IMG/VR virus record: IMGVR_UViG_3300029169_000023
Location: 1 to 30,416 of that record
Source of the DNA: a virus
Lineage: Duplodnaviria; Caudoviricetes
Direction: 5' to 3' (one strand)
Length of the DNA: 30,416 nucleotides
Shown: in pieces, positions 24-27,570 of the stretch
Layout: every line of letters begins with the position of its first letter
How positions within the stretch are numbered: position 1 is the first letter of the stretch
Program-made: the position numbers and the translations under genes
The notes under the pieces: generated by a model
The model's database searches: none
Seen by the model: the letters and a program-made list of their open reading frames with translations, nothing else
Told to the model about the DNA's origin: nothing

Positions 24-128
24 GCACTGCAGAGCGCGAAGCGCCTGGGGCACGTAGCCCGCACGCACCGCATGACCTGGAAGATCACAGGCTACGGTGC
101 CCTCGCGCTTCGCACGGAGACTAAGTAA
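24..128 (+). CDS. 5'-truncated small protein, possibly the C-terminus of a winged-helix protein
   Basis: Open frame ALQSAKRLGHVARTHRMTWKITGYGALALRTETK* ends in TAA overlapping the ATG at 128 (TAATG); start lost at contig end. Confidence 0.45.
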   Translation, partial: ALQSAKRLGHVARTHRMTWKITGYGALALRTETK

Positions 129-322
129 TGGCCACCTGTGGCAAGTGCGGCCGGCCCCAGTTTAACAAGGGTGCCAAGCCCGACCAGACCTGCCTGCGAT
201 GCGTGCGGGCCATGTTCAACCGAGCGGTGCAGGGTGCCAGCATGCTCTTCATCAGCGACATGAAGGCCCTGGGCTTTAGCCAAGCCGACATCGAGCTCGA
301 GTTGGCGCGGAGGATAGGATGA
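128..322 (+). CDS. Small Zn-finger protein
   Basis: CGKC...CLRC pairs; TAATG and ATGA coupling with neighbours. Confidence 0.65.
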   Translation: MATCGKCGRPQFNKGAKPDQTCLRCVRAMFNRAVQGASMLFISDMKALGFSQADIELELARRIG

Positions 323-2850: not shown

Positions 2851-3053
2851 TGGAAGCTGATTGCCGGTGTGGCAACGTTCGATATGAAATCGCTGAGCGT
2901 CTCCTCAACGCTGCTAAAGAGGCCCTCCTCGGTATGGACGGGGGCGATGATAATTCCCCCTGCCACCTGGGCCTCGTCACTCGCGCGCAGTGCGCGCAGT
3001 GCCGGCGAGTGGACGGTTTGGCAGCGGCGATTGATGCTGCGGAGGCAGAGTGA
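2838..3053 (+). CDS. Small Cys-containing hypothetical protein
   Basis: GGAGG RBS before ATG at 2847/2850; CRC, CH, CAQC; GTGA overlap with the sulfatase start. Confidence 0.55.
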   Translation: MEEMMEADCRCGNVRYEIAERLLNAAKEALLGMDGGDDNSPCHLGLVTRAQCAQCRRVDGLAAAIDAAEAE

Positions 3054-4297
3054 AACACTTAATCGCAGCACTCTGTCTCCTGTCCATAGCCTGTGGCGGG
3101 ACCGGTCCAACCGACCCATCGCCCAGCCCCCAGCCCACGCCGAAGCCCGACCTGGGCCGACCGAACATCGTGCTCATCTTCGCCGATGACATGGGGTTCG
3201 GGGATACCAGCATGAACGGCGGCTCGATCCAAACCCCCAACATCGACCGCATCGCCAGCGAGGGCACCCGCTTCACTGACTTCTACGTGCCCGCTGCACT
3301 ATGCTCGCCCAGCCGCGCCGCGCTGATGACGGGGCGCTACCCCGTACATGTCGGCGTTCCTTGGAACCCTGCACGCGCACCGAACGCTGATGAGATCATG
3401 GTCTCTGAGCTCCTCCACGAAGTGGGTTACAGTACCGCCATCCTCGGCAAGTGGCACCTCGGGTGGGAACCTCATGAGATGCCCATCCACAGGGGCTTCG
3501 ACTACTTCTGGGGCATGACCCACGGCAACGATGATTCGCCCTACATACTGGGCGACCAGCCCACCGATGATGGGGTAGCAGCGCAGGACATTCCACGGCG
3601 GCTCGTCGATTACAGCCTGCGCTTCATCCAGGAACACCCTGCGCCGTTCTTCATCTACATCGCCCATCGCGACCCTCACCTCCCCAACTATGGAACCTAT
3701 GTGCAGGCGATGCAGCGCATGGACGCCAGTGTTGGCCAACTGCTTGACGGTCTAGAGACCCTGGGGGTCGCTGAGAACACTCTGGTGTTCTTCACTAGTG
3801 ATAATGGCCCCGCCCGGAATGGGGGCAGCCCTGGGATCTACTCCGGGGGCAAGGGGTCTGTTGAGGAGGGTGGGATCCGGATGCCCGCTGCCGCCCGCTG
3901 GCCTGCACGTATACCCCCAGGCACCACAGTGACGGACATGGCCAGCACGATCGATCTACTGCCCACATTTGTCGCTCTGGCCGGGGGTACCCTACCAGCC
4001 GACCGGCCGTACCCTGGCGCAGACATCACACCGCTGCTCCAGGCGTCCCAGGCGGCTCTCCCTGGGCGGGGGCAGGCAGGCGCAAGGGAACTTTTGCTGT
4101 GGCAGCAGGGCGGGGCGCTAGGGGCCTTGCGGTCTGGTCAGTATAAGTGGCTGCGCCCAGGGTTGTGGAATAGCCAGCCCACCCTGATCAACCTCAGGGA
4201 CGACCCCACGGAATCGAAGGACCTGAAGTTCCAGTACCCCGAGCTCGCCGCTGAACTAGAGGCCCGTATGGTGCAGCTAGCCAAGGAGGCACAATGA
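3050..4297 (+). CDS. Cys-type (formylglycine-dependent, S1) sulfatase, lipoprotein
   Basis: Lipobox LSIAC, Pro-rich linker, RPNIVLIFADDMG, CSPSRAALMTGRYP (3302-3316), GKWHLG, SDNG, KGS.EEGGIRMP. Confidence 0.93.
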   Translation: MKHLIAALCLLSIACGGTGPTDPSPSPQPTPKPDLGRPNIVLIFADDMGFGDTSMNGGSIQTPNIDRIASEGTRFTDFYVPAALCSPSRAALMTGRYPVHVGVPWNPARAPNADEIMVSELLHEVGYSTAILGKWHLGWEPHEMPIHRGFDYFWGMTHGNDDSPYILGDQPTDDGVAAQDIPRRLVDYSLRFIQEHPAPFFIYIAHRDPHLPNYGTYVQAMQRMDASVGQLLDGLETLGVAENTLVFFTSDNGPARNGGSPGIYSGGKGSVEEGGIRMPAAARWPARIPPGTTVTDMASTIDLLPTFVALAGGTLPADRPYPGADITPLLQASQAALPGRGQAGARELLLWQQGGALGALRSGQYKWLRPGLWNSQPTLINLRDDPTESKDLKFQYPELAAELEARMVQLAKEAQ

Positions 4298-4554
4298 CAC
4301 TGATGGAACTGTCGAACTACTTCTGGCTCATCCCGTGGTTGCTAATCGGTAGCCTAGTGCTAGCCCTTGGTGGGCTGTACGAGGCCTTCGTCAAGGGCGG
4401 GCTGTGCCGGGGCAAGCCAACGATGGCGGAGTACAAAGAGATCTGCTTCCTCAGACGAACAAATAGGCTCGATGGCCCCAGGCTCGATAGGCTTCCCACA
4501 TCGCCTTCATCTCGTCAGCGCGCCAGCGGATCCGGTTACGATGATGCAGCGTGA
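4294..4554 (+). CDS. Small membrane protein
   Basis: AGGAGG RBS, ATGA overlap, hydrophobic N-terminal helix; 3' end overlaps a convergent gene. Confidence 0.5.
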   Translation: MTLMELSNYFWLIPWLLIGSLVLALGGLYEAFVKGGLCRGKPTMAEYKEICFLRRTNRLDGPRLDRLPTSPSSRQRASGSGYDDAA

Positions 4555-5110
4555 TGAGCCGCATAGCCTGTGCGAACTGAGCATAGGTGAGCGCACCGCC
4601 AATTAGCGGACTGAGCATAGAGAAGAACGTGATGAAGCTACTGCCCGCCTGTTCGTAGTCCACGTTGACGAAGGTCTGTGTGCAGCGCACTTCAGCCGCA
4701 CCAGACGAAGACCGCTGGTAGCCCCCCTCCATAGCATTAACACTAGTGGGCGTCCAGGCACTAGCATCAGGGGCTGTGGCAAACGTATTTGAATACGTCA
4801 CATAGACCGTGCTGACGGTGAAGGTTCCACTGAACGCATCAGTAGCGTTTTCCCTGATGTAGTTGCGGAAGTTCCCACTACCTGCACCCTGCCTCTTCAG
4901 CAGCGCACGAGCGATCACCGTGTTGATGATCTCAGCATCCGTGGGCAAATCGTCCAAGGTAAAGGTATCGATGCCCGTGTTGCCCGAGGCTAGCTGCCTT
5001 CGAGTAGTGTCCCCATCGTTGGTCTGGACATTACCAGGAACCGATCCAGCCCCGTTAATCCATTGCTGGTAGTTCCCTGCCGCATCGGGGAAGATATCAG
5101 TGTTGGCCAT
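4451..5110 (-). CDS. Probable virion (tail-tip/adsorption) protein, last gene of late operon
   Basis: Gly/Thr/Ala-rich beta-type sequence, WTPTSVNAMEGG motif; TGATG coupling to upstream gene. Confidence 0.6.
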   Translation of the reverse strand: MANTDIFPDAAGNYQQWINGAGSVPGNVQTNDGDTTRRQLASGNTGIDTFTLDDLPTDAEIINTVIARALLKRQGAGSGNFRNYIRENATDAFSGTFTVSTVYVTYSNTFATAPDASAWTPTSVNAMEGGYQRSSSGAAEVRCTQTFVNVDYEQAGSSFITFFSMLSPLIGGALTYAQFAQAMRLITLHHRNRIRWRADEMKAMWEAYRAWGHRAYLFV

Positions 5111-5535
5111 CAGGCTTGTACCAAGTCCACCTGAACAGCGACTTGAGTGGGGCTGCCAGTGGGGCCGATGATCATGATTTCCATCTTATCCCCCACTGCG
5201 TAGCTAGCATTCTGCACAGCTCCGCCATCAGCCCATACATCCGCCGTGCCCAGCGTGAGGTCAGTGGCCAGATGAGTTGAGGATCCGTTCTTCCGGGCAT
5301 TGACGTCAACCGTTGTGCCCCCCACCCTGTAGCCACGAACATTCGTAACGGTGCAGATATAGGTCGCGTACCATACGATGATGTTCACCGCTGCGAGGAT
5401 GCCATTCGGGTTGAACAGTGCGCCCCCTCTTGAGAAGACCGCGAGTACGTTAAGATTGTCGCGAACGTCGGTGTTCATGATAGAAGAAGTGACGGTCTCT
5501 CCAGCACTCCATGTTCGCGGTAGCGTCCAAGCCAT
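5110..5535 (-). CDS. Minor tail protein with MAW..PRTW N-terminal module
   Basis: N-terminus MAWTLPRTWSAGETVTSSIMNTDVRDNLNVL shared with 8479-9348 and 9580-9867. Confidence 0.7.
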   Translation of the reverse strand: MAWTLPRTWSAGETVTSSIMNTDVRDNLNVLAVFSRGGALFNPNGILAAVNIIVWYATYICTVTNVRGYRVGGTTVDVNARKNGSSTHLATDLTLGTADVWADGGAVQNASYAVGDKMEIMIIGPTGSPTQVAVQVDLVQA

Positions 5536-5536
5536 T

Positions 5537-5917
5537 TCAGTATCTCCTCAAGTGGTTCTCACACCCTTCGCACAGCGGGGGATACCCCTCTGGGGCAGGG
5601 AGGTTGCACCACCAGCAATTCTTCTGTTCCTTGGGGACGGGCCAAGCGACTTGAAGAGCACGGTATGGCGCAAGGAACATCCGCGAGCCTGTGGCGATCT
5701 CAATCACCTGTAGCTCGTCCGTCATGGGAACAGCGTTGCACGTCGGACACACCGGTGACTCGTAAGGTGCGGCCACCCTTCCATCGTGGTAGACCACATG
5801 CCACGGGGCAGCGGTGCGTCCAGGGGCAAGGTCGCCGATCATAAGGGCGCGCTGATACCAAGCGACATGCCCGTTGTGCTGGACAATCCAGGGGCATTCG
5901 GCGATCATACCGTTCAT
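5537..5917 (-). CDS. Zn-finger-like hypothetical protein
   Basis: ATGA overlap at 5914-5917; CPTC, CWWC, CEGC motifs. Confidence 0.6.
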   Translation of the reverse strand: MNGMIAECPWIVQHNGHVAWYQRALMIGDLAPGRTAAPWHVVYHDGRVAAPYESPVCPTCNAVPMTDELQVIEIATGSRMFLAPYRALQVAWPVPKEQKNCWWCNLPAPEGYPPLCEGCENHLRRY

Positions 5918-7173
5918 TGCCATGCCGTCACTTCCGCTACCTGCGCCCCGTTGCCCTCGAACATGCCCTTCCCCAGTACCAATCCAGTCTGCTCGGCGAG
6001 CGAGAGTAGATTTCCGTCGTAGGAGTAAACGATGACCCGCCCTGCCTGCTCGCACAGTGCCCCCTTCACAACGGCAGCTTTCTCTTCACCCATCTCCAGA
6101 AGCCTTCCGGGCATGAGCAGAACGGTATGCGCCTTGAAGTCAGTAGCGTCTTCAATGCGTTGATTGATCACCTTGACATCCGGGTATCGCGTCTTTGCCC
6201 TGGCAGCTCTGCCCGCATCGGCTTCGTAGCCCCAGGCTTCCTTCACCATACCCGCCATTCGCATCGAGGCGATCAGCGCACCGTCCCCACAGCCCAAATC
6301 AAGAACGGTCTCCGTCGTGCCAACGATAGCAATCATGGCCGAATGGGCTTGACGCATTGCCCTGATGTCATTAAACCCGTTGTCCTGCCAGTGCGCAAGA
6401 GCAGGATCAACCTTGGGCATTTCAAACTTGGAGCCTGCACGCTGGAGTTTCTCCTCTCCAAGCGTGTAGTCTGTTGAGAAACAGAAGCGGAAGTATTCTG
6501 TTTCTACAACGCCCACTCCATTCAGCACAGAGTAGGACATGGGCAGCGAAAGAAGCGACATCGCAACTTCTACTTCTGGTGCCAGCCCATTCGCATTGGC
6601 CAGTTCGATGAACAGATCTGCGAGCTTCAGCGTGTCTTTACATGCTGCACTGCACGGCAGATGAGGAACAAACCGTACCCCTAGCCAACGGAGAAGGATG
6701 TTGGACTGAGGTGGCCCCTCGATGGTTTCCATACTGAGGGTTGTATCCCGCTTGCGCCCTTCCTTCCAGACACGACTGAAGAACTCAATGCAGCAATCCG
6801 GGAACCCCAGTAGCGCCCCAATGGCCGGGTCGTCAGAGCCGCCCCAGGCCCTATGCCAGTCGCTAGCCAGTCCGGGGGCATGCATGGCCACCCGCAACCC
6901 TGGCGACCCGTGTAGGGGCGTGGCGGCACTGTAGTTCTCCCCTAGGGGCTGGGCCTGGAGAACGGAGACGCCCAGCTTTTGCAGCGTGGCCGTGCGCGAC
7001 ATCAATGCCAGTTCTTCGGGGGTAACAGAGAAGAGCGCGGAACTGCGGATGCCCCCTGGCACCGACATCGACTCCAACTCGTTCCATAGGTTAGAAGCGA
7101 TGCGGATCTTCTCTTCAAACTCAACTCGCGCGCTGTCTGAAGCCCATTGCGGGCCACGGAAAAATTCATGCAT
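5914..7173 (-). CDS. DUF483-like Cys-motif domain fused to a class I SAM methyltransferase
   Basis: IGALLGFPDCCIEFF and PHLPCSAAC motifs in the N-terminal part; VLDLGCGDG motif I and YEAD acidic strand in the C-terminal part. Confidence 0.75.
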   Translation of the reverse strand: MHEFFRGPQWASDSARVEFEEKIRIASNLWNELESMSVPGGIRSSALFSVTPEELALMSRTATLQKLGVSVLQAQPLGENYSAATPLHGSPGLRVAMHAPGLASDWHRAWGGSDDPAIGALLGFPDCCIEFFSRVWKEGRKRDTTLSMETIEGPPQSNILLRWLGVRFVPHLPCSAACKDTLKLADLFIELANANGLAPEVEVAMSLLSLPMSYSVLNGVGVVETEYFRFCFSTDYTLGEEKLQRAGSKFEMPKVDPALAHWQDNGFNDIRAMRQAHSAMIAIVGTTETVLDLGCGDGALIASMRMAGMVKEAWGYEADAGRAARAKTRYPDVKVINQRIEDATDFKAHTVLLMPGRLLEMGEEKAAVVKGALCEQAGRVIVYSYDGNLLSLAEQTGLVLGKGMFEGNGAQVAEVTAWQ

Positions 7174-8482
7174 TGACTTTCTCGCCTTTCAGTGCTGACA
7201 GTATCTTAGACAAATCTTGATGATCGCCATGGTCGGTGTGATCTCCGTGGTCAACGGAGTGTTGCAGCGTGGTCTTGATCTCTCCTTTTTCGTTGAGGAC
7301 CTCATTGATATGTATGGCGCGGCCCACTGCCCAATGTTTAGCCATCGCCTCTTCGATCTGGTCACGATCTGCCCTGAGCGTTACTGGAAATTCTCCGGCA
7401 TCCAGTAGCACCCCTTCGAAGTACTCCAACAGGGGCTTCCAAAATTCACAGTCGCGGCTACGCTTACGCCAGTCGCCGCCGAGGGCAGTGCCAGGACACT
7501 GTCCTTTGCAGGTGATCATCTGGCGGCAGCCCTGGCAGCCACCCTGATCTTGTGGAGTGGAGCGTAGTGCCGCCTGACGCATGAACGGCCCAGGCTTCGC
7601 GGCTTGCCACTGTGTCGGCGTGGTGTGGACGCGTTGACACAGGCTACGCTTCCCATCGGCATCGATGCCACGTACCGCTGGCGTAACCCAAGGGTCGCAG
7701 GCATTCCACGTGCAGTTTACTCCGCCCGAGGTGCCGTCCTTCCATGTCCAGCTATCCTTACCCCTAAGCAGGGCAATGATGTCACTGAAAGGGGCAAGCT
7801 TCAACTGTCTAAGCTGGCGCGTCTGAAGCTGGTGCAGTTCAATCATCGCCTGAAGGGTTTCTTTGTGGTCGAGCGCCTGATCCTTGAATGCGCCCTCATG
7901 CTGAAGGACGTGAAGGTTACAACTGCCCAGGCCCAGCCCATCAAGCTTTCGAAGCCACTGCTTTAGACGCGGGAGACGGTCAAATGAAGCGTTCTTCTGG
8001 TGCAGGGTGGTGATCAGCCCTGTGGGGATGCCCTCAGTGAGACAACGCTCCAGGCATGAAATAGAATGTGCCGTAGACCTACGCGTCTCTTCGAGTGTGC
8101 CGGCCCACCGAGCGTCGTTCAACTCACCAGGGCCTTCGATAGAGAACGCGACACAGACTTTGTACTTCTTGAAGAGTGGCCAATGCTTTTCGGTGATAGG
8201 ACGCCCGCTAGTCTGGCACCCGTTCTTCCCATACTTCTCGAGCCCCAATGCCCAGAGCTTCTCGAGATCTTCGAGGGGTGCCAACAGCGGTTCGCCCCCA
8301 AACAGGCTAAAGCCCCCTGCTCCGGGGTTCTCGCTCTCGAGTGCGGCAGTGATCGCCTCCATGTTGAGTGGAGGGATTGGGTTGTTTGCGCCCTTCGTTG
8401 GGATCTGGTAACACCACGAACAGCTCAAGCCCCCGTTCTTTGCACCGCATCGAAGGCCGACAGGGTTTACTTCAATCGTCAT
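7166..8482 (-). CDS. Radical SAM/SPASM-domain enzyme
   Basis: CX8CX2C (C12,C21,C24), LFGGEPLL, SIEGPGELND.R, SPASM cysteines CTWNAC...C...CX2CX5CX3CX15C; C-terminal (HxD)4. Confidence 0.92.
   Translation of the reverse strand: MTIEVNPVGLRCGAKNGGLSCSWCYQIPTKGANNPIPPLNMEAITAALESENPGAGGFSLFGGEPLLAPLEDLEKLWALGLEKYGKNGCQTSGRPITEKHWPLFKKYKVCVAFSIEGPGELNDARWAGTLEETRRSTAHSISCLERCLTEGIPTGLITTLHQKNASFDRLPRLKQWLRKLDGLGLGSCNLHVLQHEGAFKDQALDHKETLQAMIELHQLQTRQLRQLKLAPFSDIIALLRGKDSWTWKDGTSGGVNCTWNACDPWVTPAVRGIDADGKRSLCQRVHTTPTQWQAAKPGPFMRQAALRSTPQDQGGCQGCRQMITCKGQCPGTALGGDWRKRSRDCEFWKPLLEYFEGVLLDAGEFPVTLRADRDQIEEAMAKHWAVGRAIHINEVLNEKGEIKTTLQHSVDHGDHTDHGDHQDLSKILSALKGEKVNA
7214..7249 (-). repeat. (HxD)4 tandem motif at the C-terminus of the radical SAM enzyme
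   Basis: HGD HTD HGD HQD, residues 412-423. Confidence 0.9.
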
Positions 8483-9348
8483 GAGGCACCTATAAATTCT
8501 GGACGAGAGTCGGCTGCCACGTCATTATGATCAGTATGATCGTTGTGATCATCGAAGTCGGTGTGGGCGACATCGCCGTGGGTGGTCGTATCGGTGTGGT
8601 CTGTGTGGTCCGTGTGTTCGTCTACGAAGAAGCTATCGAAGTGGTCCGTATGTGTGTCTTGATGGGGATTTGTGTTATCCCCGTGATCAGAATGATCAGA
8701 ATGCGGTGGCCCGCTATCGTCATGATCATTATGATCGTTGTGTGAAGAGTTGTCGGTGTGGGAAATGTCCGAATGACCTTGGATCTCTGCGCTGCCCGAC
8801 TGTTGAATCCAGTGCAGGTATGTCTCAATCCAAACGGAGTTTAATGCCGCTGCGTCATTGTGCGGTGTAACAGTTGAATCAATGCGCCGCTGGTCCCCAT
8901 CAGCGTCGATGTAATAGACGCGATTGCTGGACAACATAAGAAAACCCGGCTGCGCGCCTGGGGTAGCAAACAGCGTACCGAGGTAGCGCCATTCGTCCTG
9001 ATTGTCATCCACGTGGTGCAGGTAATCGCCCTCTACCCAGACGGAGCCGGGTGTCTTGTCCCCGCTTGACCCATCGTACTTGTCTGCACCCACTGGCAGC
9101 TTGAGGAGAGACGTGCCCTCAAAGGCATTCTTCCCAGCGGTGAACACATTGCCTGCACCCGGGAACGCCACTGCCGTCAAGTTCGCTCCGGCTAGGCTGG
9201 CAAAGTACGATGAATTGAACGCGCGAATTAGGCCATCATCATCGATAGGCACTTTCAGGATGAGCTGATTATCCCGAATGTCCTGGTTCATCATCGCAGC
9301 GGTGACGACCTCAGGCTCAGTCCAGGTGCGTGGGGCTACCCATGCCAT
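8479..9348 (-). CDS. Probable tail-associated protein with C-terminal His-x-Asp repeat tract
   Basis: MAWVAPRTW N-terminal module, three internal beta repeats, 19 HxD triplets; ATGA coupling to the rSAM gene. Confidence 0.85.
   Translation of the reverse strand: MAWVAPRTWTEPEVVTAAMMNQDIRDNQLILKVPIDDDGLIRAFNSSYFASLAGANLTAVAFPGAGNVFTAGKNAFEGTSLLKLPVGADKYDGSSGDKTPGSVWVEGDYLHHVDDNQDEWRYLGTLFATPGAQPGFLMLSSNRVYYIDADGDQRRIDSTVTPHNDAAALNSVWIETYLHWIQQSGSAEIQGHSDISHTDNSSHNDHNDHDDSGPPHSDHSDHGDNTNPHQDTHTDHFDSFFVDEHTDHTDHTDTTTHGDVAHTDFDDHNDHTDHNDVAADSRPEFIGAS
8521..8775 (-). repeat. HxD repeat tract (19 copies in 85 aa)
   Basis: Residues 192-276; every His is followed by x-Asp. Confidence 0.95.
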
Positions 9349-9579
9349 TTAGGGGGTGCTCCTCGGAAGTTCAATTGAGGCATAGGGGTGAGGGACTGTC
9401 TTGATCGTCTCGAGTTCGTCGATAACGCGCTTGACCTTCTTCAACGCGTCCTTGACAAGCTCAACATCCTCCTTCGTCATGGGCTTGCCCCGCATCATGT
9501 CAAGGATAACAGCCTTGCCCAGTTCAAGGACGGGAATGACAGATGCCAGCTTCTTCGGCTCGAGGTCTTCAATTGCCAT
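9349..9579 (-). CDS. Small helical hypothetical protein (possible chaperone)
   Basis: Abuts both neighbours exactly (TAA/ATG); charged helical sequence. Confidence 0.65.
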   Translation of the reverse strand: MAIEDLEPKKLASVIPVLELGKAVILDMMRGKPMTKEDVELVKDALKKVKRVIDELETIKTVPHPYASIELPRSTP

Positions 9580-9867
9580 TTAGGTCACCCATTTGTCAGT
9601 GCCAACAGGGAGAACCATACGAGTGGAAGCGCCGCCATTGAAATCTTGAGTGCCCGCTGTGAATGTGTTAGCGGCTGCCAGCTTCAAGATCCCTGTAATG
9701 TTACTTCCATCAAGGTTGGCAAAACGAAGCGAGTCAATCGCAATGATCTTGCCGCTGTCGTTCATTGGTGTCTTGAGGATGTTCATGTTGTCACGAATCT
9801 GCGCGTTGAGGTCACCCTCCTTTACCAACTCACCTGCCAACCACGTTCTAGGAGCTGTCCAAGCCAT
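9580..9867 (-). CDS. Minor tail protein, paralogue of the N-terminal ~90 aa of 8479-9348
   Basis: MAWTAPRTW...IRDNMNILKTP...FTAG...LPVGTDKW aligns by eye with MAWVAPRTW...IRDNQLILKVP...FTAG...LPVGADKY. Confidence 0.8.
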   Translation of the reverse strand: MAWTAPRTWLAGELVKEGDLNAQIRDNMNILKTPMNDSGKIIAIDSLRFANLDGSNITGILKLAAANTFTAGTQDFNGGASTRMVLPVGTDKWVT

Positions 9868-9876
9868 TATGTCCCT

Positions 9877-11961
9877 CTACTGATTAACCCTTGTCCCAGA
9901 ACCCAGGGCACTGTCGTCAAGGACCCATCCAGCAATGAAGGATCCATAGCCCAGGCGCGTGGTGATGCCAAGCTCGGTGAACCCCGTGCGCTCAAGGATC
10001 CAGTAGTTGAATGGATCACCAGGGGCAAGGGTCCACGTGCATCGGATAACTCCACGTTCACCGATGGTAAGGTTTATCCCATTGATGAAGAAGTTTGTAG
10101 CGGTGATCTGTTGTTCTGTCTCTCCAATTGGAAAGAAGGGCGCAGCCCCGATAACTGTTTCAATCAGATTGATCTTGTCACTGACGTCACGTTGCAGTGC
10201 AGCATTCATCAACTGAATGCTTCTGTTTCCCCAGAACGTAACGGAGTCCACCTGTGTAAGGATGTCCTTCGCCTGATTGACTATGAACTCAGCCGCATCA
10301 CGAGATACGTTGAGGTCATCCTGGTAGGGCATGTCCAAGGCGAAGGTCGTTTCACCGTAACGAGTCTTAGACGGCTGGCTGTCCGCAGTAGCTAGCGCGG
10401 TCTCATAGGCATAGATACCCTTGCCCCTCAGGTTGAGCTTCGTAAGAAACCCGTCGAAGGGGCCATTGTTAGTGACTACCACAACAGCAGAGTTCGCGCT
10501 GAACGTAACGACAATTGAAATCTGCGCGGTATAGTCTGTGCCCGTGCCATCGGCGTTCTCGAAGAACGCATAATCGGTCGTGGCCACAGGAACAACCATC
10601 TCGATCCCACCGACTCGCGTAGCCCTGGCATCAGGGTCGCGGTACAGTGCTTCTACCGTAAGGCTAGTCGATCGCAAGATCTCAGGAACAGATGCCAACT
10701 GGAACAGAATAGAAGTGGCAGCCGCGTCCACTCTACGTGGGTGGGCCTGCACCTCAGCACGATTGATAACGCTGTCTCTTCCACGGCCAGCGCCAACGCC
10801 TGAGATCTCCTGATCTGTAAGGGATATGTCCGTCGTGAAGATGTTCGGCCGCTTGTGCCGACTCTCGAAGATCAATACGCCATCGCGGCGCACCCAGATG
10901 AACCCCTGCTCGGACTGGATGAGCTTGGTGAACTCCGTCATCACAGAGACTTCTTCACTAAAGGCATTGTCCAAGGCGAAAGGATACTCGTCTCCCCCGA
11001 CCTGTACCACGCTGCCCTGTGGGGGCTGATTCTCCATGTTAGCAAGAAGGGCTGAGAAGACTTCATCTGACCGCACGTTTTGAAGAACCGTAAGACCCTT
11101 GACCTTAACCCTGGCAGCCTCGTCCATCCAGTCCACGCAAGAGACTAGAACCTTGCGGCTACCAAATTTGCCCGAGGTCGGAGTAATGGAATCAATAGTG
11201 CCGTAGAACAGAAACTGACGAACCTCCTGAAACACCATGGACAAGCGAACGTTGACACCGATGCGCCATCCATCAAGGGCGTTAGCGTTGTTCGGCGAGT
11301 AGAGCCCCAGAAGTGCCTGTGAGTTTGTGGCACTGTTGTCAAGCTGAAAGTCAAGGTCGCCTGAAGAAGCCACTCTGTCTCGAAACGTGATGCCCTGGAT
11401 GCCACGGTTCACACGGATGCCTGAAGCTATCTGAACATCGAGTAAAGGCTGCCACACCCCGACCTTGACGTTGTCCCAACCGGAATTCTGCACAGCAATG
11501 GACACATCAACGATCAAAGGGTATGTAGGGGCAGTCAGCGATGTGTAGATGAGTAGCCCATTCTTGAAATACCGCACTTCGCCGCTGATCACAGCCACGC
11601 GCAACATATCACCAGACTTGTAAGTCGTGGCGAGCTTCACTACTCCGAGCTCAATGACATTGAGGACGTCCGTAGCTATTTCAGCCTGAAACCCAAAGTC
11701 AATGTCATCAAAGTCCTCATCCGTGTTTCCGTTGGCTAGCCCTATAGCTGCACCCGCTAGAGCCTGCGGGATTTCAGCTTGGACGAACCAGAACTTCTCA
11801 GTTCGTGTTTGAACAGACGTACCCCCAGCATCCCAAAGAGCAGTGGCAGTCGTCTTACGAATCTTGCCATCTTCAGTGCTGCTAGCGTCGACAAGATTTT
11901 CGAACTCCACCTTCTCAGGAAGAAAGGCATCGATGTCTACGGAACTAGGGAACACAGACAT
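9877..11961 (-). CDS. Tail-tip/baseplate hub protein
   Basis: Directly follows the tape measure; beta-rich; SEQGFIWVRRDGVLIFESR hub-like motif; N-terminal lectin/SPRY-like segment. Confidence 0.7.
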   Translation of the reverse strand: MSVFPSSVDIDAFLPEKVEFENLVDASSTEDGKIRKTTATALWDAGGTSVQTRTEKFWFVQAEIPQALAGAAIGLANGNTDEDFDDIDFGFQAEIATDVLNVIELGVVKLATTYKSGDMLRVAVISGEVRYFKNGLLIYTSLTAPTYPLIVDVSIAVQNSGWDNVKVGVWQPLLDVQIASGIRVNRGIQGITFRDRVASSGDLDFQLDNSATNSQALLGLYSPNNANALDGWRIGVNVRLSMVFQEVRQFLFYGTIDSITPTSGKFGSRKVLVSCVDWMDEAARVKVKGLTVLQNVRSDEVFSALLANMENQPPQGSVVQVGGDEYPFALDNAFSEEVSVMTEFTKLIQSEQGFIWVRRDGVLIFESRHKRPNIFTTDISLTDQEISGVGAGRGRDSVINRAEVQAHPRRVDAAATSILFQLASVPEILRSTSLTVEALYRDPDARATRVGGIEMVVPVATTDYAFFENADGTGTDYTAQISIVVTFSANSAVVVVTNNGPFDGFLTKLNLRGKGIYAYETALATADSQPSKTRYGETTFALDMPYQDDLNVSRDAAEFIVNQAKDILTQVDSVTFWGNRSIQLMNAALQRDVSDKINLIETVIGAAPFFPIGETEQQITATNFFINGINLTIGERGVIRCTWTLAPGDPFNYWILERTGFTELGITTRLGYGSFIAGWVLDDSALGSGTRVNQ

Positions 11962-14591
11962 TATTGAACCTGGAGAAGAGCGTCTCTAATGGACCTTGAA
12001 AGAACACGGGCCAGGGATGCCATCGCGTCATCCGAGAACTCCATATCGGAGGGAGTCATAGACTCTCGAGCTCTGTCGAGCGGCACCACTGCCTCGGGGC
12101 CTGCCTCACCAATGATACCCAGGGTGGGGGAAGTAACGATGCCCCCTTCTGCAAACTCAGGGATCCCTTCGCCATCAAAGATACCAGGGCGATTGAACCC
12201 GGCTGCACCCCCTCGAGGGGTATCAAAGCGAACCGGAATAGTAATAGGCTTTGGATCAATGCCCGTGATGGCACTGACAAAGCTGTCGATCCTTTCGATA
12301 AGCGTTTGGAACTGCTCACTCATGGACTGCGCAAAGGAAATACCCGCGTCCTCAGCGCTAGTGAATGCTTCACCGTTGGCGTCTACGAGTTGCCCACTCT
12401 TGATGAGCTCATCAATAACTGGGCGCATCGCCTCGGGCACAGCTTGACCGGTAGCCTTGGCAGTCTCGACGAACTCAAGCAGGCTTCCGCCCATCCTGTC
12501 AATGACAGTGGTAACGTCGATTCCACTGGCAGTGAGCAGGTTGAAGTCTTGCAGCAATTGTCCAGCTTGTTCCTCGAGTTGCTGCCGCTGCATGGCAGGC
12601 CCAAGTTCCTCGATAGTGAACCCATAGCGCTCAGTCGCTTCCTGGAGTGCGGCCTGGGCCTCACCCTGAAGATTTAGCGTGTCATTCACACGATTTACTG
12701 CGGCCTGGAACTGATCAACCGTCTCGGCATCAAAGACTTGCTTTACGAGATCCTCACTCGTAACCTGAGACAGCCGCGCCTGAAGAGCCTCGAAGCCCCC
12801 CTCCGCCTCGAAGAAAGAATCGCGAAGGTCATTGACCTCCACCTCAGCGTCACTAAACAGGCCACCGATTGCACTCAGGCCCTTGTCAAACAGCCCGCCT
12901 GCAAGCCCGCCAAGGATGCCCCCCAAGCCCGGCACGAGCCCGCCAATGGCCCCGCCCAGGCTCTTGCCGAGGCTCTTGCTTAGGACGTCTGTAAGCGGCC
13001 CAGAGATCGCCGTAGCAAGATCCCCGCCTAGTTGGGCACCCACCGCGCGGAAAACATCCCCACCGCCCTGTATGGCCCCCACAATCACCTGCGGAAGCGC
13101 CATAAGGGAGGCACTGAGACCCTCCTTGAAGGGGATGCTGAATTTGCCAGGGGCCTCGGCTCCCAACTGCGCGAGAGCATCCTTGGCCCCTTCGAGGTTT
13201 AGCAGGCTTTCAAAGTCTGGAAGGGTCTCGAACTGCTTAAGGAAACTATCAAACTCTATTTCCTCAATGGCACTTCTTGGAGTTTCTATGGCTGTAATAG
13301 CGTTGTCAATCAGACTTGAAAGCTTCTTCGATGCCGCCTCAGCCGCAACTCCCGCGTTAGCAGCGGCATCCCCCGTCTCTTCATACGCTTCAGCCAACAT
13401 GCCCGCAGAATCAGTAGCGTCCCTAGTTCTTTGGATGTTAGTCTGAAACTTCTCATTGCTAAGGGTAACGTCTGCTATGAGCCCAGTGAACGCATTTGTC
13501 TGATCCTTAATCGTCTTGATGTTCTTCTGCTCTTCAGCGTCGACTACTGCAACAGCTCCTTTAAGATTCTTCCAAGCCTGTGCCGCCTCCAATGGATTCT
13601 TGCGAAGATCATCAAGGAATACGGCAGCCTGTCCCGTTCTCTTGATGATGGCTTCTATCTCGACAAAGTCAATCCGGAGTTCTTGAAGCCCTATGCTCAC
13701 CAGAGCTATAGCGTTTAGAACAACGCCGAAAGCCTTACTAAGAATGACAAGACCGCCAGTAATGAAGGATTGGATGGCATCTTCATTGTCCTTAACGATC
13801 TTGACTAGATCCCCTGCCACTCCCACAAATGCCGCAAATGCAGGCAGAAGGGCTGTACCAATCGAGATGGAAATCTGGTCAACCCGCTGCCCCATGATTC
13901 TCAAGGCATTCGCGGGCGAATCAACGGTACGTGCCAAATCGCCCTGGGCCTTTGCAGTCTGCTGAAGAATCGCTTCATACGTGGCGAGGAACTTCTGGTT
14001 CTGTGTAAGCTTCACTCCCTGCTCAGCAATGCCCTTGTTCCAAGCAATCGTCTCAAGCTGGGCTTGGTTGACAAACACGTTCAAGGAACGAAGCGCCTCG
14101 GTGTTCCCAACGAGTCCACTCTGAAGGGCCTGTACCGGATCGATCCCCTTCTCACTCAGGTTCAAGAAACTGTCAAGATCGCCAGACAACTCAACGAGTG
14201 AAGTAGAGATACCCAGGGCAGAGTCTGTGGTTTCGCCCATCGACTCTGCAAGAAGGAACAGTGTTGCCGCCTGCTCACGTAGCTTGAATTCGTTGGTCCC
14301 GACAGCCTCACTTAGCTCTTCAGACCACGTTCTCGCAGCGTCTGCCATGTTCCCAAACGATACTTCAAAGAGGTTCTCCGACTCAGTCGCGGATATGGCA
14401 GCTTCAAGCGACTTCTTCGCGACAACAGCTAACGCCGCGCCTGCGGCTGCCCCGGCGATACCAATAGCTCCAGCCGCAAGCCCAGCCGCCTTACTGAATC
14501 CTCCAAGAACACTGCCCGCTGAGGACAGCTTCTTAGAGAATCGGTCATCTAGGTCAATGGTGCCTTGAAGAGTACCGATATTCAGGGCCAC
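11961..14591 (-). CDS. Tape measure protein (876 aa)
   Basis: IGTLQGTIDLDD start, Ala/Gly-rich helical body, C-terminal FAEGGIVTSPTLGIIGEAGPEAVVPL; follows the chaperones. Confidence 0.92.
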   Translation of the reverse strand: MALNIGTLQGTIDLDDRFSKKLSSAGSVLGGFSKAAGLAAGAIGIAGAAAGAALAVVAKKSLEAAISATESENLFEVSFGNMADAARTWSEELSEAVGTNEFKLREQAATLFLLAESMGETTDSALGISTSLVELSGDLDSFLNLSEKGIDPVQALQSGLVGNTEALRSLNVFVNQAQLETIAWNKGIAEQGVKLTQNQKFLATYEAILQQTAKAQGDLARTVDSPANALRIMGQRVDQISISIGTALLPAFAAFVGVAGDLVKIVKDNEDAIQSFITGGLVILSKAFGVVLNAIALVSIGLQELRIDFVEIEAIIKRTGQAAVFLDDLRKNPLEAAQAWKNLKGAVAVVDAEEQKNIKTIKDQTNAFTGLIADVTLSNEKFQTNIQRTRDATDSAGMLAEAYEETGDAAANAGVAAEAASKKLSSLIDNAITAIETPRSAIEEIEFDSFLKQFETLPDFESLLNLEGAKDALAQLGAEAPGKFSIPFKEGLSASLMALPQVIVGAIQGGGDVFRAVGAQLGGDLATAISGPLTDVLSKSLGKSLGGAIGGLVPGLGGILGGLAGGLFDKGLSAIGGLFSDAEVEVNDLRDSFFEAEGGFEALQARLSQVTSEDLVKQVFDAETVDQFQAAVNRVNDTLNLQGEAQAALQEATERYGFTIEELGPAMQRQQLEEQAGQLLQDFNLLTASGIDVTTVIDRMGGSLLEFVETAKATGQAVPEAMRPVIDELIKSGQLVDANGEAFTSAEDAGISFAQSMSEQFQTLIERIDSFVSAITGIDPKPITIPVRFDTPRGGAAGFNRPGIFDGEGIPEFAEGGIVTSPTLGIIGEAGPEAVVPLDRARESMTPSDMEFSDDAMASLARVLSRSIRDALLQVQ

Positions 14592-16184: not shown

Positions 16185-16603
16185 TTGTCCACCTTCAAAT
16201 CTGCAGCAAGGTCAGGAAGAAGCGTCCTACGCGCATCCATCAAAGGCCTCTCAAGATACTTAGGCCCGCGCCCAGGGGGGTGAAACCTTACTCCAGCCCC
16301 TTGGCGCTCAGACACTTTCCAAGAACGTGGGGAGTGCTGTGAAAGATGCTCATGGACAGCGATTGCATAGGGGGCAGCCGGCCCACCGTAGTTGAGGAAC
16401 ACCTGAAGCTTGATCTTTGCCGCCTCAACGAACCCGCTGTTCTTCAGGTTGGCATCATCCACAGGCACAAAATCCCGCTTGCTCACTGTCATGACACGCT
16501 CCCCTCTAAAGAACAGGGCAGCTCTTGCCCTGTCAGGGAACCGCTTCGCATGTGTAGCGATGACTTTGCGCATCTTCTCGTCACCGACTAGATCGAATCT
16601 CAT
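16169..16603 (-). CDS. HK97 gp10-like neck/tail-completion protein
   Basis: VPVDDANLKNSG, APYAIAVHE, GPKYLERP motifs. Confidence 0.85.
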   Translation of the reverse strand: MRFDLVGDEKMRKVIATHAKRFPDRARAALFFRGERVMTVSKRDFVPVDDANLKNSGFVEAAKIKLQVFLNYGGPAAPYAIAVHEHLSQHSPRSWKVSERQGAGVRFHPPGRGPKYLERPLMDARRTLLPDLAADLKVDKWRAI

Positions 16604-17763
16604 GCAGTCTTCTTTTCAACAACGACAGAGTCAATTGCTTCAGCAAATCTCTGTCCAATGTTTTCCCAACGGAACTGCGGCTGTAACACTCGCGAACGGC
16701 CCATGCTGCCATAGGCCGTACGAGTGCGCTCGGAAATGTACATCTCCTCAAGGGCGTCAATCGTTCTACGCCTGTCGGGTACCCCACCAATCACGTTCAC
16801 CCTGTTCGGCGTGACTGCAATCTCTGAGCAAGGCACCCGCATGACCGTGTCCTCAGGCCATTCCCCCAGAGCCGACCAGTCGGGTACAATCTGAGGAATG
16901 GCACATGCCATGCTTTCCATCGTGCAGAGGCCCCATCCCTCGCCCTGAGTGGTGGTCAACTGCACATCAAAGGAAGCGTAGACGTGCGCCAACTGAAGTT
17001 CAGGCACCCCGTACCCCATGTCGGGTTCGCAGAAGATGAGCCGTTTGTTTTCCTTTCCAAATCCGTAGTAGTTCATCAGTTGCTGTACGTTGTATCCCTG
17101 CTCGCCAGTGGGGGCGACATGCAGGTACAGATAAGCATCCCTGTGCCCAAACTCCTTCACCCACTCCGCGAAGTAAGACACGGTCAAATCCAAACGCTTT
17201 CGAGGCTGGTTCCGATTCACGTTGCCGACAATGTAGGCATCCACTACGGGGTCAAGCCCCAATGCCTTACGGGCTTCCCTTCTATCTCTCGGGTGGTACG
17301 TTTCAACGTCCACCCCAAGGGGCACCACTGCGGCCGGCCCTTCGTAGCCTCCAAGGCGCGCTTCATTCTTCCCGAACTCCGTCCAGAAGATAGCAAGGTC
17401 AAGCCCATTGAGCGCTTTCGCATTGCAGTTCTTGCCGTCAACAGCAAGTGCAGCAATGATGAATGAAACTTTTGCATCCTCGAGTGCTTTGACGTACATC
17501 GGGATATTCCAAGGGTCATTCTGAATGACGAGAGCGTCTGGCTTTATCGTCTCCACTATGTCCTTGATGCGCCCCAGGCCAAACGGATCCCCTCCAGGGG
17601 CGCAGGGATAGATGGGATAGGGGTATCGGTGAGGATCCCCAAGATAGTTCAACCCTAGGACCGCTACGTCCCACGTCTTTTGAAGGATGGCGAGCGTGTT
17701 GTGAGTGCAGCGGGCAAACCCAGTCTCAGCAACAGCGTCGCCAACCCAAAGAAGCTTTCTCAT
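16600..17763 (-). CDS. GT4 (GT-B) glycosyltransferase
   Basis: TGFAR, PLGVD...YHP, NRNQPRKRLD, GEGWGLCTMESMACAIPQI. Confidence 0.9.
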   Translation of the reverse strand: MRKLLWVGDAVAETGFARCTHNTLAILQKTWDVAVLGLNYLGDPHRYPYPIYPCAPGGDPFGLGRIKDIVETIKPDALVIQNDPWNIPMYVKALEDAKVSFIIAALAVDGKNCNAKALNGLDLAIFWTEFGKNEARLGGYEGPAAVVPLGVDVETYHPRDRREARKALGLDPVVDAYIVGNVNRNQPRKRLDLTVSYFAEWVKEFGHRDAYLYLHVAPTGEQGYNVQQLMNYYGFGKENKRLIFCEPDMGYGVPELQLAHVYASFDVQLTTTQGEGWGLCTMESMACAIPQIVPDWSALGEWPEDTVMRVPCSEIAVTPNRVNVIGGVPDRRRTIDALEEMYISERTRTAYGSMGRSRVLQPQFRWENIGQRFAEAIDSVVVEKKTA

Positions 17764-18839: not shown

Positions 18840-20792
18840 CTAGACCCAAACGGGGATCCAATGCGCGACCCCTCCAATGTCAATCTCGACCCATTGAGCC
18901 TGTGCTGCCGCTGTTGGGCCTGTAGCACCAATCGTTCCAAGGGTGGCCCCTGCACCCCCACCAAGGGCGATACCACGATTGATGTCGAGCCTTCCATCAA
19001 AACGCGCGCGGGCAGAAGCATTCGACTGGCGGAAAGCATAGTTGAGCGTGCCGCCTGTAGGGTTGCTGATGATGAGCAATCCATAACGATTCGTGCCTTG
19101 GTTAACGTTGCCCCCGACAAGAAGCGCACCCGTGTCAGTTGCCGAACCCCCTCCGCCCAGAACCATTGAAGGGGCATTAATCGTCCACCCGAACACTTGA
19201 GACATAGCGTGGTTAAGAGTGAGGCTGCCCCCCTGTGTCAATAGGAAATCACTCCATCCACCTGGGATGCTAGTCGCCCGCGCTGGGGCTACAAACACTC
19301 CGACCTGATTTCCAACTGCACCAGTCTGTGCTCCCAAGGAAAAGCGCGAGCAGTTGAAGTTATATTCGCTTGTCCCCGTATCCGTCGTCATCAGGTAGCG
19401 CTGCGCTGAAGGGTTGCTCCACCGAATCTGGTTCCCTGTGCCGTTAAACTGCCAGAACCAAAAGTTAGCCGCGCCCCATCCCTGCTGAAAGTCGTCACTG
19501 AGCCCCAACGTAAGACCGGTGAGGTCGCGAGGGATACGAAGCTGCCCATTCAAGACGCTCTGCGCGGTCCCGGTGTGGTTCAGGAAAAAGCGAGTCGCGG
19601 CGGCGTTCAGTGCGCTGCGGACGACGCTGATGTCGCTCGACACAGCGTTGACCATCGCAGGGAAATTAATCCCTCGGATAGAGGTGATGTTCTCCGTCCC
19701 CGCCGAAGGCTGGAAGAGAGCAACAGCGGGCGCAATCATGTCTAGACCGGTCAGTGCTCCCATGTTCACAGTAGAGCCTGCCGCCGTGCTGAACTTCGGT
19801 GCGAAGGAAAGACCAGTCGCTCCTGTGGACCACGTCATAACTGCGCCTGAGACGAGAGCGCGAATCTGGGGTGAAGCTGAGATAGTGAGATGTTGGATAG
19901 CAACACTCGTTCCCGATGTAGACCGCTCGTGCGTTCCGCCGTCATTCAGAATGAGCATCTGGACGAGATCGTTGCTCGTTCCGTTCCGGACTGTGGGCAA
20001 CGCATTGAAAAGCGTAAACGCTTGGAACCCGGCCGCCGCATTCGAGATGTGAACCGATCGATCCAGTACCGAAGCATAGATGTAGAACGCATTCGTGTAG
20101 GTGATCTGTGCGTCATTCCGAAGCATCTGCCCAATGAATGCGCCCGATGTCGTAAACGTGGGTTCCCAAATTCCAAAGCCAGTCTGCTCCGCCGGGGTCG
20201 TGTTCCCCTCAGAGTAGTTGGACCGTATCGGGTGGAACGTCTCGATCAGCCCACCACCAGCGGCAGCAGATGCTCTTAGTGCCAGCGCGTTTCCTGCCGC
20301 CGTGCCACCAATAAGCGTCTGTCCGCCTGCGCGGCCTGCCAGCAGTGCATAGATAGTGTGGTCGTCGTCAAGAAGAGAAGCACCGACAAGCCCTGTGCCG
20401 TGGTCGATAAGAGGGATGTCCCCCGCCACGAGGGCCTGGAAGGCGAACGTGGTGGCCCCTGTGGCCCGCAGGACCTCGCCAGCGGTCAGCCCGCTTGCTG
20501 TATGGGCTGCTCCCTGAATGTCATGGGCAAGAGGTGTCTGAGCGTCAGCAAGCAAACCACTTAGGCCGACAACGTCAATCTCGTCCACTCCACCGTTCTG
20601 ATGATCTACGGCATGCAACGTGGGGTTCTGGTCATCGGCCAACAGACCAGACAGCCCTGCCACGTTAATCTCATCCGCTCCACCGTTCTGGTGGGTAGCG
20701 GCGTGAAGTCCAGGCGCAGCTCCCACCCACGGCTCATTGAGATTGAGCAGAAGACCGCCACCGAGATCAACGTTGATGAGTAGAGTTGCCAT
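18840..20792 (-). CDS. Fibre-like virion protein (650 aa)
   Basis: Gly/Ala/Thr-rich; HxxxH repeats; LLDDDHTIYALLAGRAGGQ fibre motif; C-terminal WVEIDIGGVAHWIPVWV. Confidence 0.8.
   Translation of the reverse strand: MATLLINVDLGGGLLLNLNEPWVGAAPGLHAATHQNGGADEINVAGLSGLLADDQNPTLHAVDHQNGGVDEIDVVGLSGLLADAQTPLAHDIQGAAHTASGLTAGEVLRATGATTFAFQALVAGDIPLIDHGTGLVGASLLDDDHTIYALLAGRAGGQTLIGGTAAGNALALRASAAAGGGLIETFHPIRSNYSEGNTTPAEQTGFGIWEPTFTTSGAFIGQMLRNDAQITYTNAFYIYASVLDRSVHISNAAAGFQAFTLFNALPTVRNGTSNDLVQMLILNDGGTHERSTSGTSVAIQHLTISASPQIRALVSGAVMTWSTGATGLSFAPKFSTAAGSTVNMGALTGLDMIAPAVALFQPSAGTENITSIRGINFPAMVNAVSSDISVVRSALNAAATRFFLNHTGTAQSVLNGQLRIPRDLTGLTLGLSDDFQQGWGAANFWFWQFNGTGNQIRWSNPSAQRYLMTTDTGTSEYNFNCSRFSLGAQTGAVGNQVGVFVAPARATSIPGGWSDFLLTQGGSLTLNHAMSQVFGWTINAPSMVLGGGGSATDTGALLVGGNVNQGTNRYGLLIISNPTGGTLNYAFRQSNASARARFDGRLDINRGIALGGGAGATLGTIGATGPTAAAQAQWVEIDIGGVAHWIPVWV
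20529..20708 (-). repeat. 2 x 30-aa repeat with HxxxH
   Basis: LHAATHQNGGADEINVAGLSGLLADDQNPT / LHAVDHQNGGVDEIDVVGLSGLLADAQTPL. Confidence 0.9.
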
Positions 20793-22580: not shown

Positions 22581-22903
22581 GGCTGGTAAACTCCTTCTGG
22601 TGTAGACGACTCCGTCTCATGCTCTGCAAGGCACCGAAGAAGGATAGGCTCCAGCTCCTTGTCCTTCTGCAGCCTCGTTGAAATGTAGCGCCCGAACATA
22701 TTCCGTTCAGTGTCGAGCTGAACCTCTGTCTCTTCAGCCTTCTTCGCTTCATGTACGAACCCATCCGCAACCACGATGCCACCCTTTGCAAGGACGGCGC
22801 AGAAAAGAGTCCACACAAGACGCTCGGCCATACGCGCCTTCCACGAGTCCTTAACAACAGGCTTCTTCGCGAAGTCAGGAATAGACATCGATCCAGTGTC
22901 CAT
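22577..22903 (-). CDS. Single-TM membrane protein
   Basis: One hydrophobic helix followed by a charged helical region; coupled on both sides. Confidence 0.6.
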   Translation of the reverse strand: MDTGSMSIPDFAKKPVVKDSWKARMAERLVWTLFCAVLAKGGIVVADGFVHEAKKAEETEVQLDTERNMFGRYISTRLQKDKELEPILLRCLAEHETESSTPEGVYQP

Positions 22904-23214
22904 TACCGCCTCCTCATGTCCATGAGATAACCGATGAGCGCATCCATCTGTTCATCGTTGAGGCGATACCCTGGCATCCTGTTATCTATGCCCCTGCTAA
23001 TCCAGTGTGCCATCTCACGCGGCGGCATTCTCGAATAGCTCAGGTTCCCTCTACGGGCATTGTGGCAAGTGACGCACGGCGGATTCGCATTGTAGAAGAT
23101 GTCTTCGCCCAGGCTACTCCGTCCCCCGCCTTCAGATGGACGGAGAGTGACCACCAGTAGCGCCACAAGGATGGCGACCACGACGATGACGATCAACTGC
23201 GTACGCGACTTCAT
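22903..23214 (-). CDS. Membrane-anchored class I monohaem cytochrome c
   Basis: N-terminal TM, GEDIF..., CVTCH (23062-23076), axial Met in RMPGY, C-terminal LNDEQMDALIGYL helix; ATGA coupling at 23211-23214. Confidence 0.85.
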   Translation of the reverse strand: MKSRTQLIVIVVVAILVALLVVTLRPSEGGGRSSLGEDIFYNANPPCVTCHNARRGNLSYSRMPPREMAHWISRGIDNRMPGYRLNDEQMDALIGYLMDMRRR

Positions 23215-27569: not shown

Positions 27570-27570
27570 G

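Follow-up and report, generated by a model that had tools for sequence, protein, structure and literature searches.

A widespread radical SAM/SPASM enzyme and DUF483-like partner as the likely maturation system of a probable HxD-repeat tail protein in tailed phages

The window analysed here is the whole record of a tailed virus (IMG/VR record IMGVR_UViG_3300029169_000023; 30,416 bases). On its minus strand, a cassette of four genes (5537–9348) encodes a protein with a tract of His-x-Asp (HxD) motifs, a radical S-adenosylmethionine (SAM) enzyme with a SPASM domain (hereafter rSAM), a protein with a DUF483-like and a methyltransferase domain, and a small zinc-finger protein. The rSAM/HxD system is real, widespread and uncharacterised, and it likely directs rSAM maturation, of the type known from peptides that ribosomes synthesise and that are modified after translation (RiPPs), at a virion protein. 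We propose that the rSAM and its DUF483-like partner modify the HxD tract, probably by linking His rings to Asp C-beta atoms, and that the HxD protein is a trimeric tail appendage. Taken as a whole, this proposal has slightly less than an even chance of being right. The features of the cassette are as follows.

8479–9348, minus strand: HxD-repeat protein of 289 amino acids, likely substrate and likely tail appendage
9076–9348, minus strand: its N-terminal module (residues 1–91), with a PVGxDK-aromatic 'hook' (residues 85–91) at the end
8779–9051, minus strand: its beta domain (residues 100–190)
8521–8775, minus strand: its HxD tract (residues 192–276)
7166–8482, minus strand: radical SAM/SPASM enzyme of 438 amino acids, likely maturase
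7214–7249, minus strand: four-HxD tail of the rSAM (residues 412–423)
6424–7173, minus strand: DUF483-like domain (residues 1–250), core partner
5914–6408, minus strand: class I SAM methyltransferase domain with an intact DxGxGxG motif, accessory
5537–5917, minus strand: protein of 126 amino acids with three CxxC pairs (zinc-finger gene)

A preliminary description of this DNA had reported four coupled genes, and all four open reading frames (ORFs) were present. The stop codon of the HxD gene overlaps the start of the rSAM gene (ATGA), and the stop of the latter overlaps the start of 5914–7173. The zinc-finger gene exists, with its start most likely at the ATG at 5917 and not at the GTG at 6055 given before. 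The count of 19 HxD triplets also held: the protein contains 21, and 19 of them lie within residues 192–276, where every His (19/19) belongs to an HxD motif. When this stretch of 85 residues was shuffled 20,000 times, the mean was 5.1 and the maximum 13. The tract further contains Phe-x-Asp at positions 241 and 265, the latter in the three-residue phase. Across 95 homologue C-termini, Asp stood two residues after 1975 of 2106 His, and Ser after 2 of 2106.

Homologous loci were collected with a profile search, which supplied 54 viral loci and, of 230 cellular ones, the 80 best. A locus search with the single protein gave nothing new, and the HxD alignment varied too much to serve in one. An HxD-rich neighbour of the rSAM, the conservation of which the preliminary description had proposed to check, was found in 48/54 viral and 55/80 cellular loci; the system is thus not confined to phages. 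In 36/54 viral loci the HxD-rich ORF ended at most 60 nucleotides from that of the rSAM. Of the six viral loci without such a neighbour, four (L023, L031, L035, L053) had less than 2 kb of upstream sequence, a fifth (L034) carried a Phe-x-Asn tract instead, and the sixth (L007) is considered below. A reverse search with an enzyme-blind DNA pattern returned 81 loci. The enzyme family was present in 10 of the 14 with a tract (10 or more motifs), compared with 0 of the 67 tract-free loci; wherever the beta domain was present in this search (10 loci), so was the enzyme. Three of the four misses were a low-complexity repeat and the two ends of one microsatellite contig. Ten genomes with no local tract were scanned in full for the HxD pattern, and only one (G659; 11 vs 0) clearly exceeded controls.

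The rSAM itself ends in four HxD motifs, which the preliminary description had overlooked. Such a tail with at least three motifs was present in 49/54 viral and 16/80 cellular loci. The cellular carriers of the tract are diverse: short peptides, proteins with a twin-arginine-like N-terminus as seen by eye (these two kinds in L073, L084, L091, L098, L111), proteins of 800–1900 amino acids, and lectin-domain, FAD-binding and KilA-N proteins. At eight loci (L061, L066, L067, L076, L085, L107, L113, L125) bacterial proteins of 970–1900 amino acids, essentially free of Pfam domains, were seen to end in an HxD tract directly upstream of the rSAM. Because the enzyme and its partner accompany such repeats in dozens of phages and bacteria, the HxD protein is likely the substrate, as had been suggested, now on the strength of co-occurrence in both search directions. 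We regard it as very probable that the tract is modified by the enzyme and recognised without a fixed leader. The latter is suggested by the attachment of the tract to unrelated proteins and even to the enzyme; the range of cellular carriers likewise speaks for a portable tag whose reading needs no shared leader.

Among annotated phage records, the rSAM matched only those of the Thermus phages Cumys, phiMa and phiLo, which were cultured on Thermus thermophilus HB8. All His of Cumys_13 (54/54) and phiMa_29 (53/53) lie in HxD motifs; in phiLo, none of the four translated genes downstream of the enzyme was HxD-rich. Since the third gene of Cumys and phiMa contains the HxD tract, the proposal can be tested in cultured phages. 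In the available text of a preprint on these phages, the trio of Cumys and phiMa was noted as an 'rSAM module', its third gene was given as unknown, and a role in DNA modification was proposed (10.1101/2024.08.14.607894). The word 'histidine' is absent from that text (10.1101/2024.08.14.607894). Besides that proposal, a cyanobacterial locus (L154) speaks for action on DNA, as its enzyme pair lies near genes for a helicase (UvrD), a nuclease (PD-(D/E)XK) and a PLD-like protein and has no HxD tract. That pair is, however, directly flanked by coiled-coil proteins, the third gene of the Thermus module encodes an HxD protein, the cassette of the window lies in a tail operon, and HxD motifs are also present on the enzyme. 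A check for deazapurine genes, made with QueC and TGT models and not including QueD, QueE, FolE or DpdA-specific ones, matched QueC in 2/49 and TGT in 0/49 viral records (16 at least 90% complete), and the TGT model may miss DpdA. Modification of DNA by the rSAM and DUF483 proteins is therefore, in our estimate, very improbable.

The residues that replace His in the tracts point to the kind of chemistry involved. Enrichment was tested in three tract sets, with His motifs fixed and the other residues shuffled. In 117 homologue tracts, Phe-x-Asp/Asn occurred 62 times (15.9 expected) and Tyr-x-Asp/Asn 126 times (24.4 expected); over all three sets, Phe or Tyr two residues before Asp or Asn was enriched 2.7 to 5.9 times, in viral and cellular tracts alike. 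Other residues reachable from His by a one-step mutation reached at most 1.4 times (observed vs expected: Gln 15 vs 14.5, Asn 16 vs 26.7, Leu 5 vs 8.8, Pro 43 vs 31.5), and Arg (2 vs 1.3) was too rare to judge. In L034 (2908–3945) the tract consists mostly of Phe-x-Asn units, and the rSAM of this locus has no HxD tail. Because His is replaced by no residues other than Phe and Tyr, the motif is read as aromatic-x-Asp/Asn, which supports the aromatic-x-acceptor pattern presumed earlier and, judged from the motifs, is the grammar of three-residue cyclophane substrates. Phe does not ligate metals, but can serve as a cyclophane donor. PapB and other SPASM enzymes with two auxiliary clusters likewise act on the C-beta of Asp. 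The three-residue cyclophane links described in the sources consulted include His C2 to C-beta, Tyr C3 to Asp C-beta and Phe C4 to Asn C-beta (PMC11002830, PMC11499958).

The tract had no regular structure in the predicted model, whereas the beta domain was modelled with a predicted local distance difference test (pLDDT) score of 85–92 by block. The extreme C-terminus appears to rejoin the beta domain in the model (from aligned ranges 99..289). Comparison with solved folds gave nothing below E 0.001 in the PDB with Foldseek, an empty PDB sequence search, and a best VIA hit with a Z of only 4.3 (root-mean-square deviation [rmsd] 4.5, 97 aligned, LlpA lectin); in BFVD the sole match was an unnamed protein of 342 amino acids. 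The spacing of the motifs was mirror-symmetric (p < 0.05) in 36/117 homologue tracts, 19/56 viral-locus tracts and 2/55 cellular tracts, counts that are not independent because the homologues are related. The spacing in Cumys_13 was symmetric as well (p 0.0075). This symmetry suggests an out-and-back shape of the tract in many phages. Residue identity across mirror positions was uncorrelated (6 vs 5.2; 82 vs 84.5) and thus gave no sign of paired substitutions.

An unmodified tract might form a metal-binding needle, with the enzyme pair acting elsewhere. The composition rich in His and Asp, the predicted trimer (see below) and the mirror-symmetric spacing would all suit such a needle, and there is a precedent in the T4 gp37 needle, for which seven His-bound irons have been described (PMC6957217). 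It is hard to reconcile with the enzyme at all ten beta-domain loci of the reverse search, with Phe and Tyr in place of His, and with HxD rather than HxH motifs. We give this explanation little credence; the tract may still bind metals after modification.

The minus strand of the window is a siphovirus-type structural operon, in which a head protein, a head-tail adaptor, a lambda-like tube protein, a chaperone and the tape measure protein were recognised with Pfam and PHROGs. The tape measure gene is followed by 9877–11961, 9580–9867, 9349–9579, the four cassette genes, 5110–5535 and 4451–5110. Three of the genes around the cassette are relevant here.

9877–11961, minus strand: 694-residue protein encoded immediately downstream of the tape measure gene, by position a likely tail tip or hub
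9580–9867, minus strand: stand-alone paralogue of the N-terminal module with the hook motif at its end, likely docking partner
5110–5535, minus strand: second paralogue (first part of the N-terminal module) with a different C-terminal domain, likely tail appendage

These three had been called tail-type genes. The label is positional, as none had a Pfam or PHROGs match at E 0.01; the clear tail genes lie further upstream. The placement of the HxD protein on the tail draws on other evidence. A homologue of 9877–11961, the post-tape-measure protein, bears the tract as a C-terminal fusion in 8/54 viral loci (E 8e-67 to 1e-84), and in L006 the tract lies inside a homologue of the central tail fibre J (phrog_31, E 4e-47), to which 9877–11961 has a weak profile match (probability 6.7%). 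Cumys_13 is located after baseplate and tail-collar genes. The N-terminal module ends in the PVGxDK-aromatic motif, and Cumys_14 and 9580–9867 have the same ending. Where the beta-domain protein lacks the module, another gene with this ending was found in 19/26 loci, nearly always just upstream (controls 1/21 and 0/78), and 13/22 upstream proteins matched tail fibre or spike PHROGs, mostly weakly. From this pattern of splitting and fusion we infer that the motif is a docking hook.

A three-copy prediction of the HxD protein scored 0.72 (best control 0.00), with confident contacts in residues 2–76, agreement between runs for at least 40% of contacts and, for the partner, a pLDDT of 54 or higher; the mark used for this score was reached by 20/30 solved pairs and 1/23 single chains, a calibration that only roughly fits a three-copy job. 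The fusions, the hook motif and the predicted trimer agree with the earlier suggestion and make it likely that the HxD protein is on the tail as a trimeric appendage. Its presence in the virion is, in our judgement, highly probable.

These findings also bear on the idea that the HxD protein is modified as a RiPP-like precursor, with a product that acts in or on the host and not in the virion. Among the cellular relatives, the short peptides and twin-arginine-like proteins fit such a role. The fusions to post-tape-measure proteins and a J homologue, the hook on fibre-like proteins, the predicted trimer and the position of Cumys_13 do not, and we consider it improbable.

The preliminary description had recognised an rSAM/SPASM enzyme in 7166–8482, and this was borne out. 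PF04055 matched over its cut-off (E 3.5e-8) and TIGR04085 weakly (E 0.006), and eight auxiliary (SPASM) Cys (257, 262, 282, 316, 319, 325, 329, 345) are invariant, as is H191. The cluster motif is CX8CX2C, compared with CX3CX2C in the majority of relatives; the five-residue insertion is common to a subgroup. No fewer than 120 clusters belong to the family at an identity of 41% or higher. Five large phages (L014, L015, L022, L025, L026) carry a tandem pair of rSAM paralogues, in some cases with HxD tails as long as 25 motifs, and L014 and L025 have two HxD proteins each.

The best PDB sequence match of the rSAM was the anaerobic sulfatase-maturating enzyme (anSME; 4K37, E 4e-15), with which it shares the same eight-Cys auxiliary pattern, and a complete sulfatase gene lies 3 kb away on the opposite strand (3050–4297, plus strand; PF00884, E 3.5e-52); its product contains a CxPxR motif, and its N-terminus resembles that of a lipoprotein. 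The enzyme might accordingly be taken for the anaerobic maturase of this sulfatase. It differs from anSME in its TIGR03942 score, far below the cut-off (32 vs 349 bits), and in lacking the Asp that follows the third SPASM Cys in all six anSME references. A link between sulfatase and rSAM was rejected, as none of the 134 loci had a sulfatase homologue, and the chance that the enzyme serves the sulfatase is negligible.

The DUF483-like/methyltransferase fusion described earlier was recovered: 5914–7173 matched DUF483 below the cut-off (E 8e-5, 23 vs 25 bits), and its C-terminal domain has a class I methyltransferase fold (Foldseek E 2e-8; VIA Z 14.5, rmsd 3.5, 157 aligned). In fold searches with both domains the result lists were filled by the methyltransferase; an Atlas search with the DUF483-like domain returned only DUF483 clusters and, weakly, DUF3793. 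C127, C128, H171, C174 and C178 of this domain are conserved, and in several bacteria it is fused to the rSAM. The DUF483-like domain occurred in 46/54 viral and 69/80 cellular loci, the methyltransferase in only 28/54 and 35/80 (Cumys_11 and phiLo_141 are without it), and the zinc-finger gene in 4/54 and 2/80, the closest relatives only. By distribution, the methyltransferase and zinc-finger genes are accessory.

Given that the tract is the substrate, the enzyme could act as follows. A 5'-deoxyadenosyl radical would take a hydrogen from Asp C-beta, and the resulting radical would add to the ring two residues upstream, with a loss of 2 Da per motif. We give this step somewhat better than even odds on that premise. 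Operation in the manner of a triceptide synthase would, by analogy and on the same premise, be the best single guess, and a shade more plausible than not; the cross-link step would then have arisen by convergence with triceptide synthases; membership among them is unsupported. The HxD protein is predicted to trimerise via its N-terminal module and may dock via the hook. More speculatively, the stapled tract could form a stiff, protease-resistant needle that runs out and back, in which imidazole nitrogens and carboxylates would be left free to bind metals, and the methyltransferase could be an optional extra.

Several observations weigh against this proposal. On the side of linkage, L007 has no HxD-rich neighbour in its 8 kb, which is a real gap; 25/80 cellular loci have none at the threshold used, some being short contigs and some having shorter tracts; and the cyanobacterial L154 (G052) is a true counterexample to universality, where the rSAM and DUF483 pair (8323–12038) has a coiled-coil protein on either side (the two are paralogues, and one of them carries His-Asp-Gln heptads) and no HxD tract in 20 kb. 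The fourth miss of the reverse search, L250, has 11 motifs and no enzyme. Three of the 10 reverse positives are contigs that had already been found, and two pairs are near-identical; because several loci are near-duplicates, locus counts overstate independence. On the structural side, the tract was modelled without confidence, the tract of the window itself is not mirror-symmetric (p 0.53), and 9877–11961, for which family searches gave no firm family, is a likely tail tip or hub by position.

The chemistry meets further difficulties. The kinship with triceptide maturases that the preliminary description had assumed was not borne out: scores against the respective hidden Markov models were far below the cut-offs (bits/cut-off: AmcB 45/425, YhhB 33/445, GrrM/OscB 26/310, FxsB 20/370, XyeB 17/450). 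A tree was built from 13 members of the family, 6 anSME and 19 triceptide-like references; of the latter, 16 score below their own family cut-offs, and HaaB, HtkB and YxdB were not in the sample. In this tree the family formed its own clade with a split support of 100, and its eight SPASM Cys contrast with four in 19/19 of the triceptide-like references. As the enzyme lies outside the sampled triceptide-synthase clades, the cross-link chemistry stays putative. The root of the tree and an apparent nesting of cellular within viral members were not trusted, given the long stem and the choice of the best 80 of 230 cellular loci. The near-obligate DUF483-like partner has no role in a simple cross-link model, and the sole characterised His-repeat protein system, in the part of the report available, gives +8 Da and not -2 Da (PMC13128918). 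In a separate observation, a putative cyanobacterial precursor with about 10 tandem Trp-Glu-Asn motifs adjoins a GrrM/AmcB-like rSAM (L141, 3008–3331).

The same substrate and virion site could therefore be combined with another chemistry, such as a His N-to-Asp link, hydroxylation or epimerisation at Asp C-beta, or a one-carbon addition like that of HxsA. This would accommodate the anSME-like set of eight Cys in a separate clade, the near-obligate and often fused partner, the +8 Da gained by HxsA, and the twin rSAM genes of the five large phages, which recall the HxsB/HxsC pair. Hxs models gave no match at E 0.1 among 9 proteins of the window, the rSAM included; among the relatives of this rSAM, the best HxsB match reached only E 3.5e-8. 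The interchange of His, Tyr and Phe with Asp or Asn at +2 best fits coupling at a ring carbon, and Phe has no heteroatom. Another chemistry is thus rather unlikely, if still a serious contender, and we retain the ring-to-C-beta link as the preferred reading.

If the proposal is true, RiPP-type radical chemistry would extend to a structural protein of the virion, a widespread rSAM family would gain a function, and DUF483 would gain a context. Given the unrelated carriers of the tract, the enzyme could also be put to use to staple folded proteins without a leader. In its broadest form, the idea would be that unrelated tailed-phage lineages use a leader-independent rSAM/DUF483 maturase, itself no member of the known clades of cyclophane synthases, to staple tens of HxD motifs per chain on a portable tag, which yields a rigid, metal-binding out-and-back needle docked on fibres through a short hook at the C-terminus, and that bacteria use the same pair on exported proteins; we hold this to be conceivable but doubtful.

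A prophage-like locus with the gene order of the window was found in two copies (L063 and L064) in one Vicinamibacteria genome, and for this reason our guess is that the host belongs to the Acidobacteriota. Elsewhere in the window, always on the minus strand, several genes were observed. Amid the head and neck genes (16600–17763 and 25324–27593) lie genes for a glycosyltransferase (phrog_2170), for a protein that fuses glycosyltransferase-like and methyltransferase parts, and for a P-loop-like protein of 178 amino acids; together they are possibly a second system that decorates the virion, by glycosylation. Near the endolysin gene, 22903–23232 encodes a small c-type cytochrome-like protein (CxxCH; PF13442, E 6e-7), atypical in a phage late operon. 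A Cys/Pro-rich lipoprotein-like protein of 416 amino acids (23211–24461) had no match in Pfam or PHROGs, and a fibre-like protein of 650 amino acids rich in Gly, Ala and Thr (18840–20792) had no family match and contains His-containing repeats near its N-terminus.

In the open-access literature, such chemistry turned up solely in work on peptide natural products and on a single protein of bacterial defence; the trio of genes has been published, but no description of an HxD substrate and virion target for it was found. One of the closest known systems is the Thermus rSAM module, an adjacent homologous trio with an rSAM 47% identical to that of the window and a matching DUF483 partner (E 3e-28). 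Its third gene, located after baseplate genes, shares the beta domain and HxD tract. Unlike in the window, the partner is without a methyltransferase, and the hook-bearing N-terminal module is encoded on its own, by Cumys_14. The triceptide synthases (HaaB, HtkB, YhhB, YxdB, OscB/GrrM, MscB/FxsB, XncB, ChlB) likewise combine an rSAM/SPASM enzyme with adjacent repeats of aromatic-x-acceptor motifs. The system of the window differs in its separate clade, its eight rather than four SPASM Cys, its DUF483 partner and the HxD tail on the enzyme, and its carriers are proteins of up to about 1900 amino acids with no shared leader. The anti-phage system HXS (HxsABCD), so far as its report was available, resembles the window in the rSAM-dependent maturation of a His-x-X repeat protein that is not a small peptide, and differs in having His-x-Ser motifs in five basic repeats, two enzymes with HxsD, a periplasmic role in host defence and a gain of 8 Da (PMC13128918). 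T4 gp37 is a trimeric fibre in which a stretch rich in His leads back to a base domain; for the HxD protein, a trimer is predicted and such a return is suggested by the model. In the window protein, HxD motifs take the place of His-only sites, the motifs are far denser, a candidate modifying enzyme is encoded nearby, and the sequence and fold searches gave no match to gp37.

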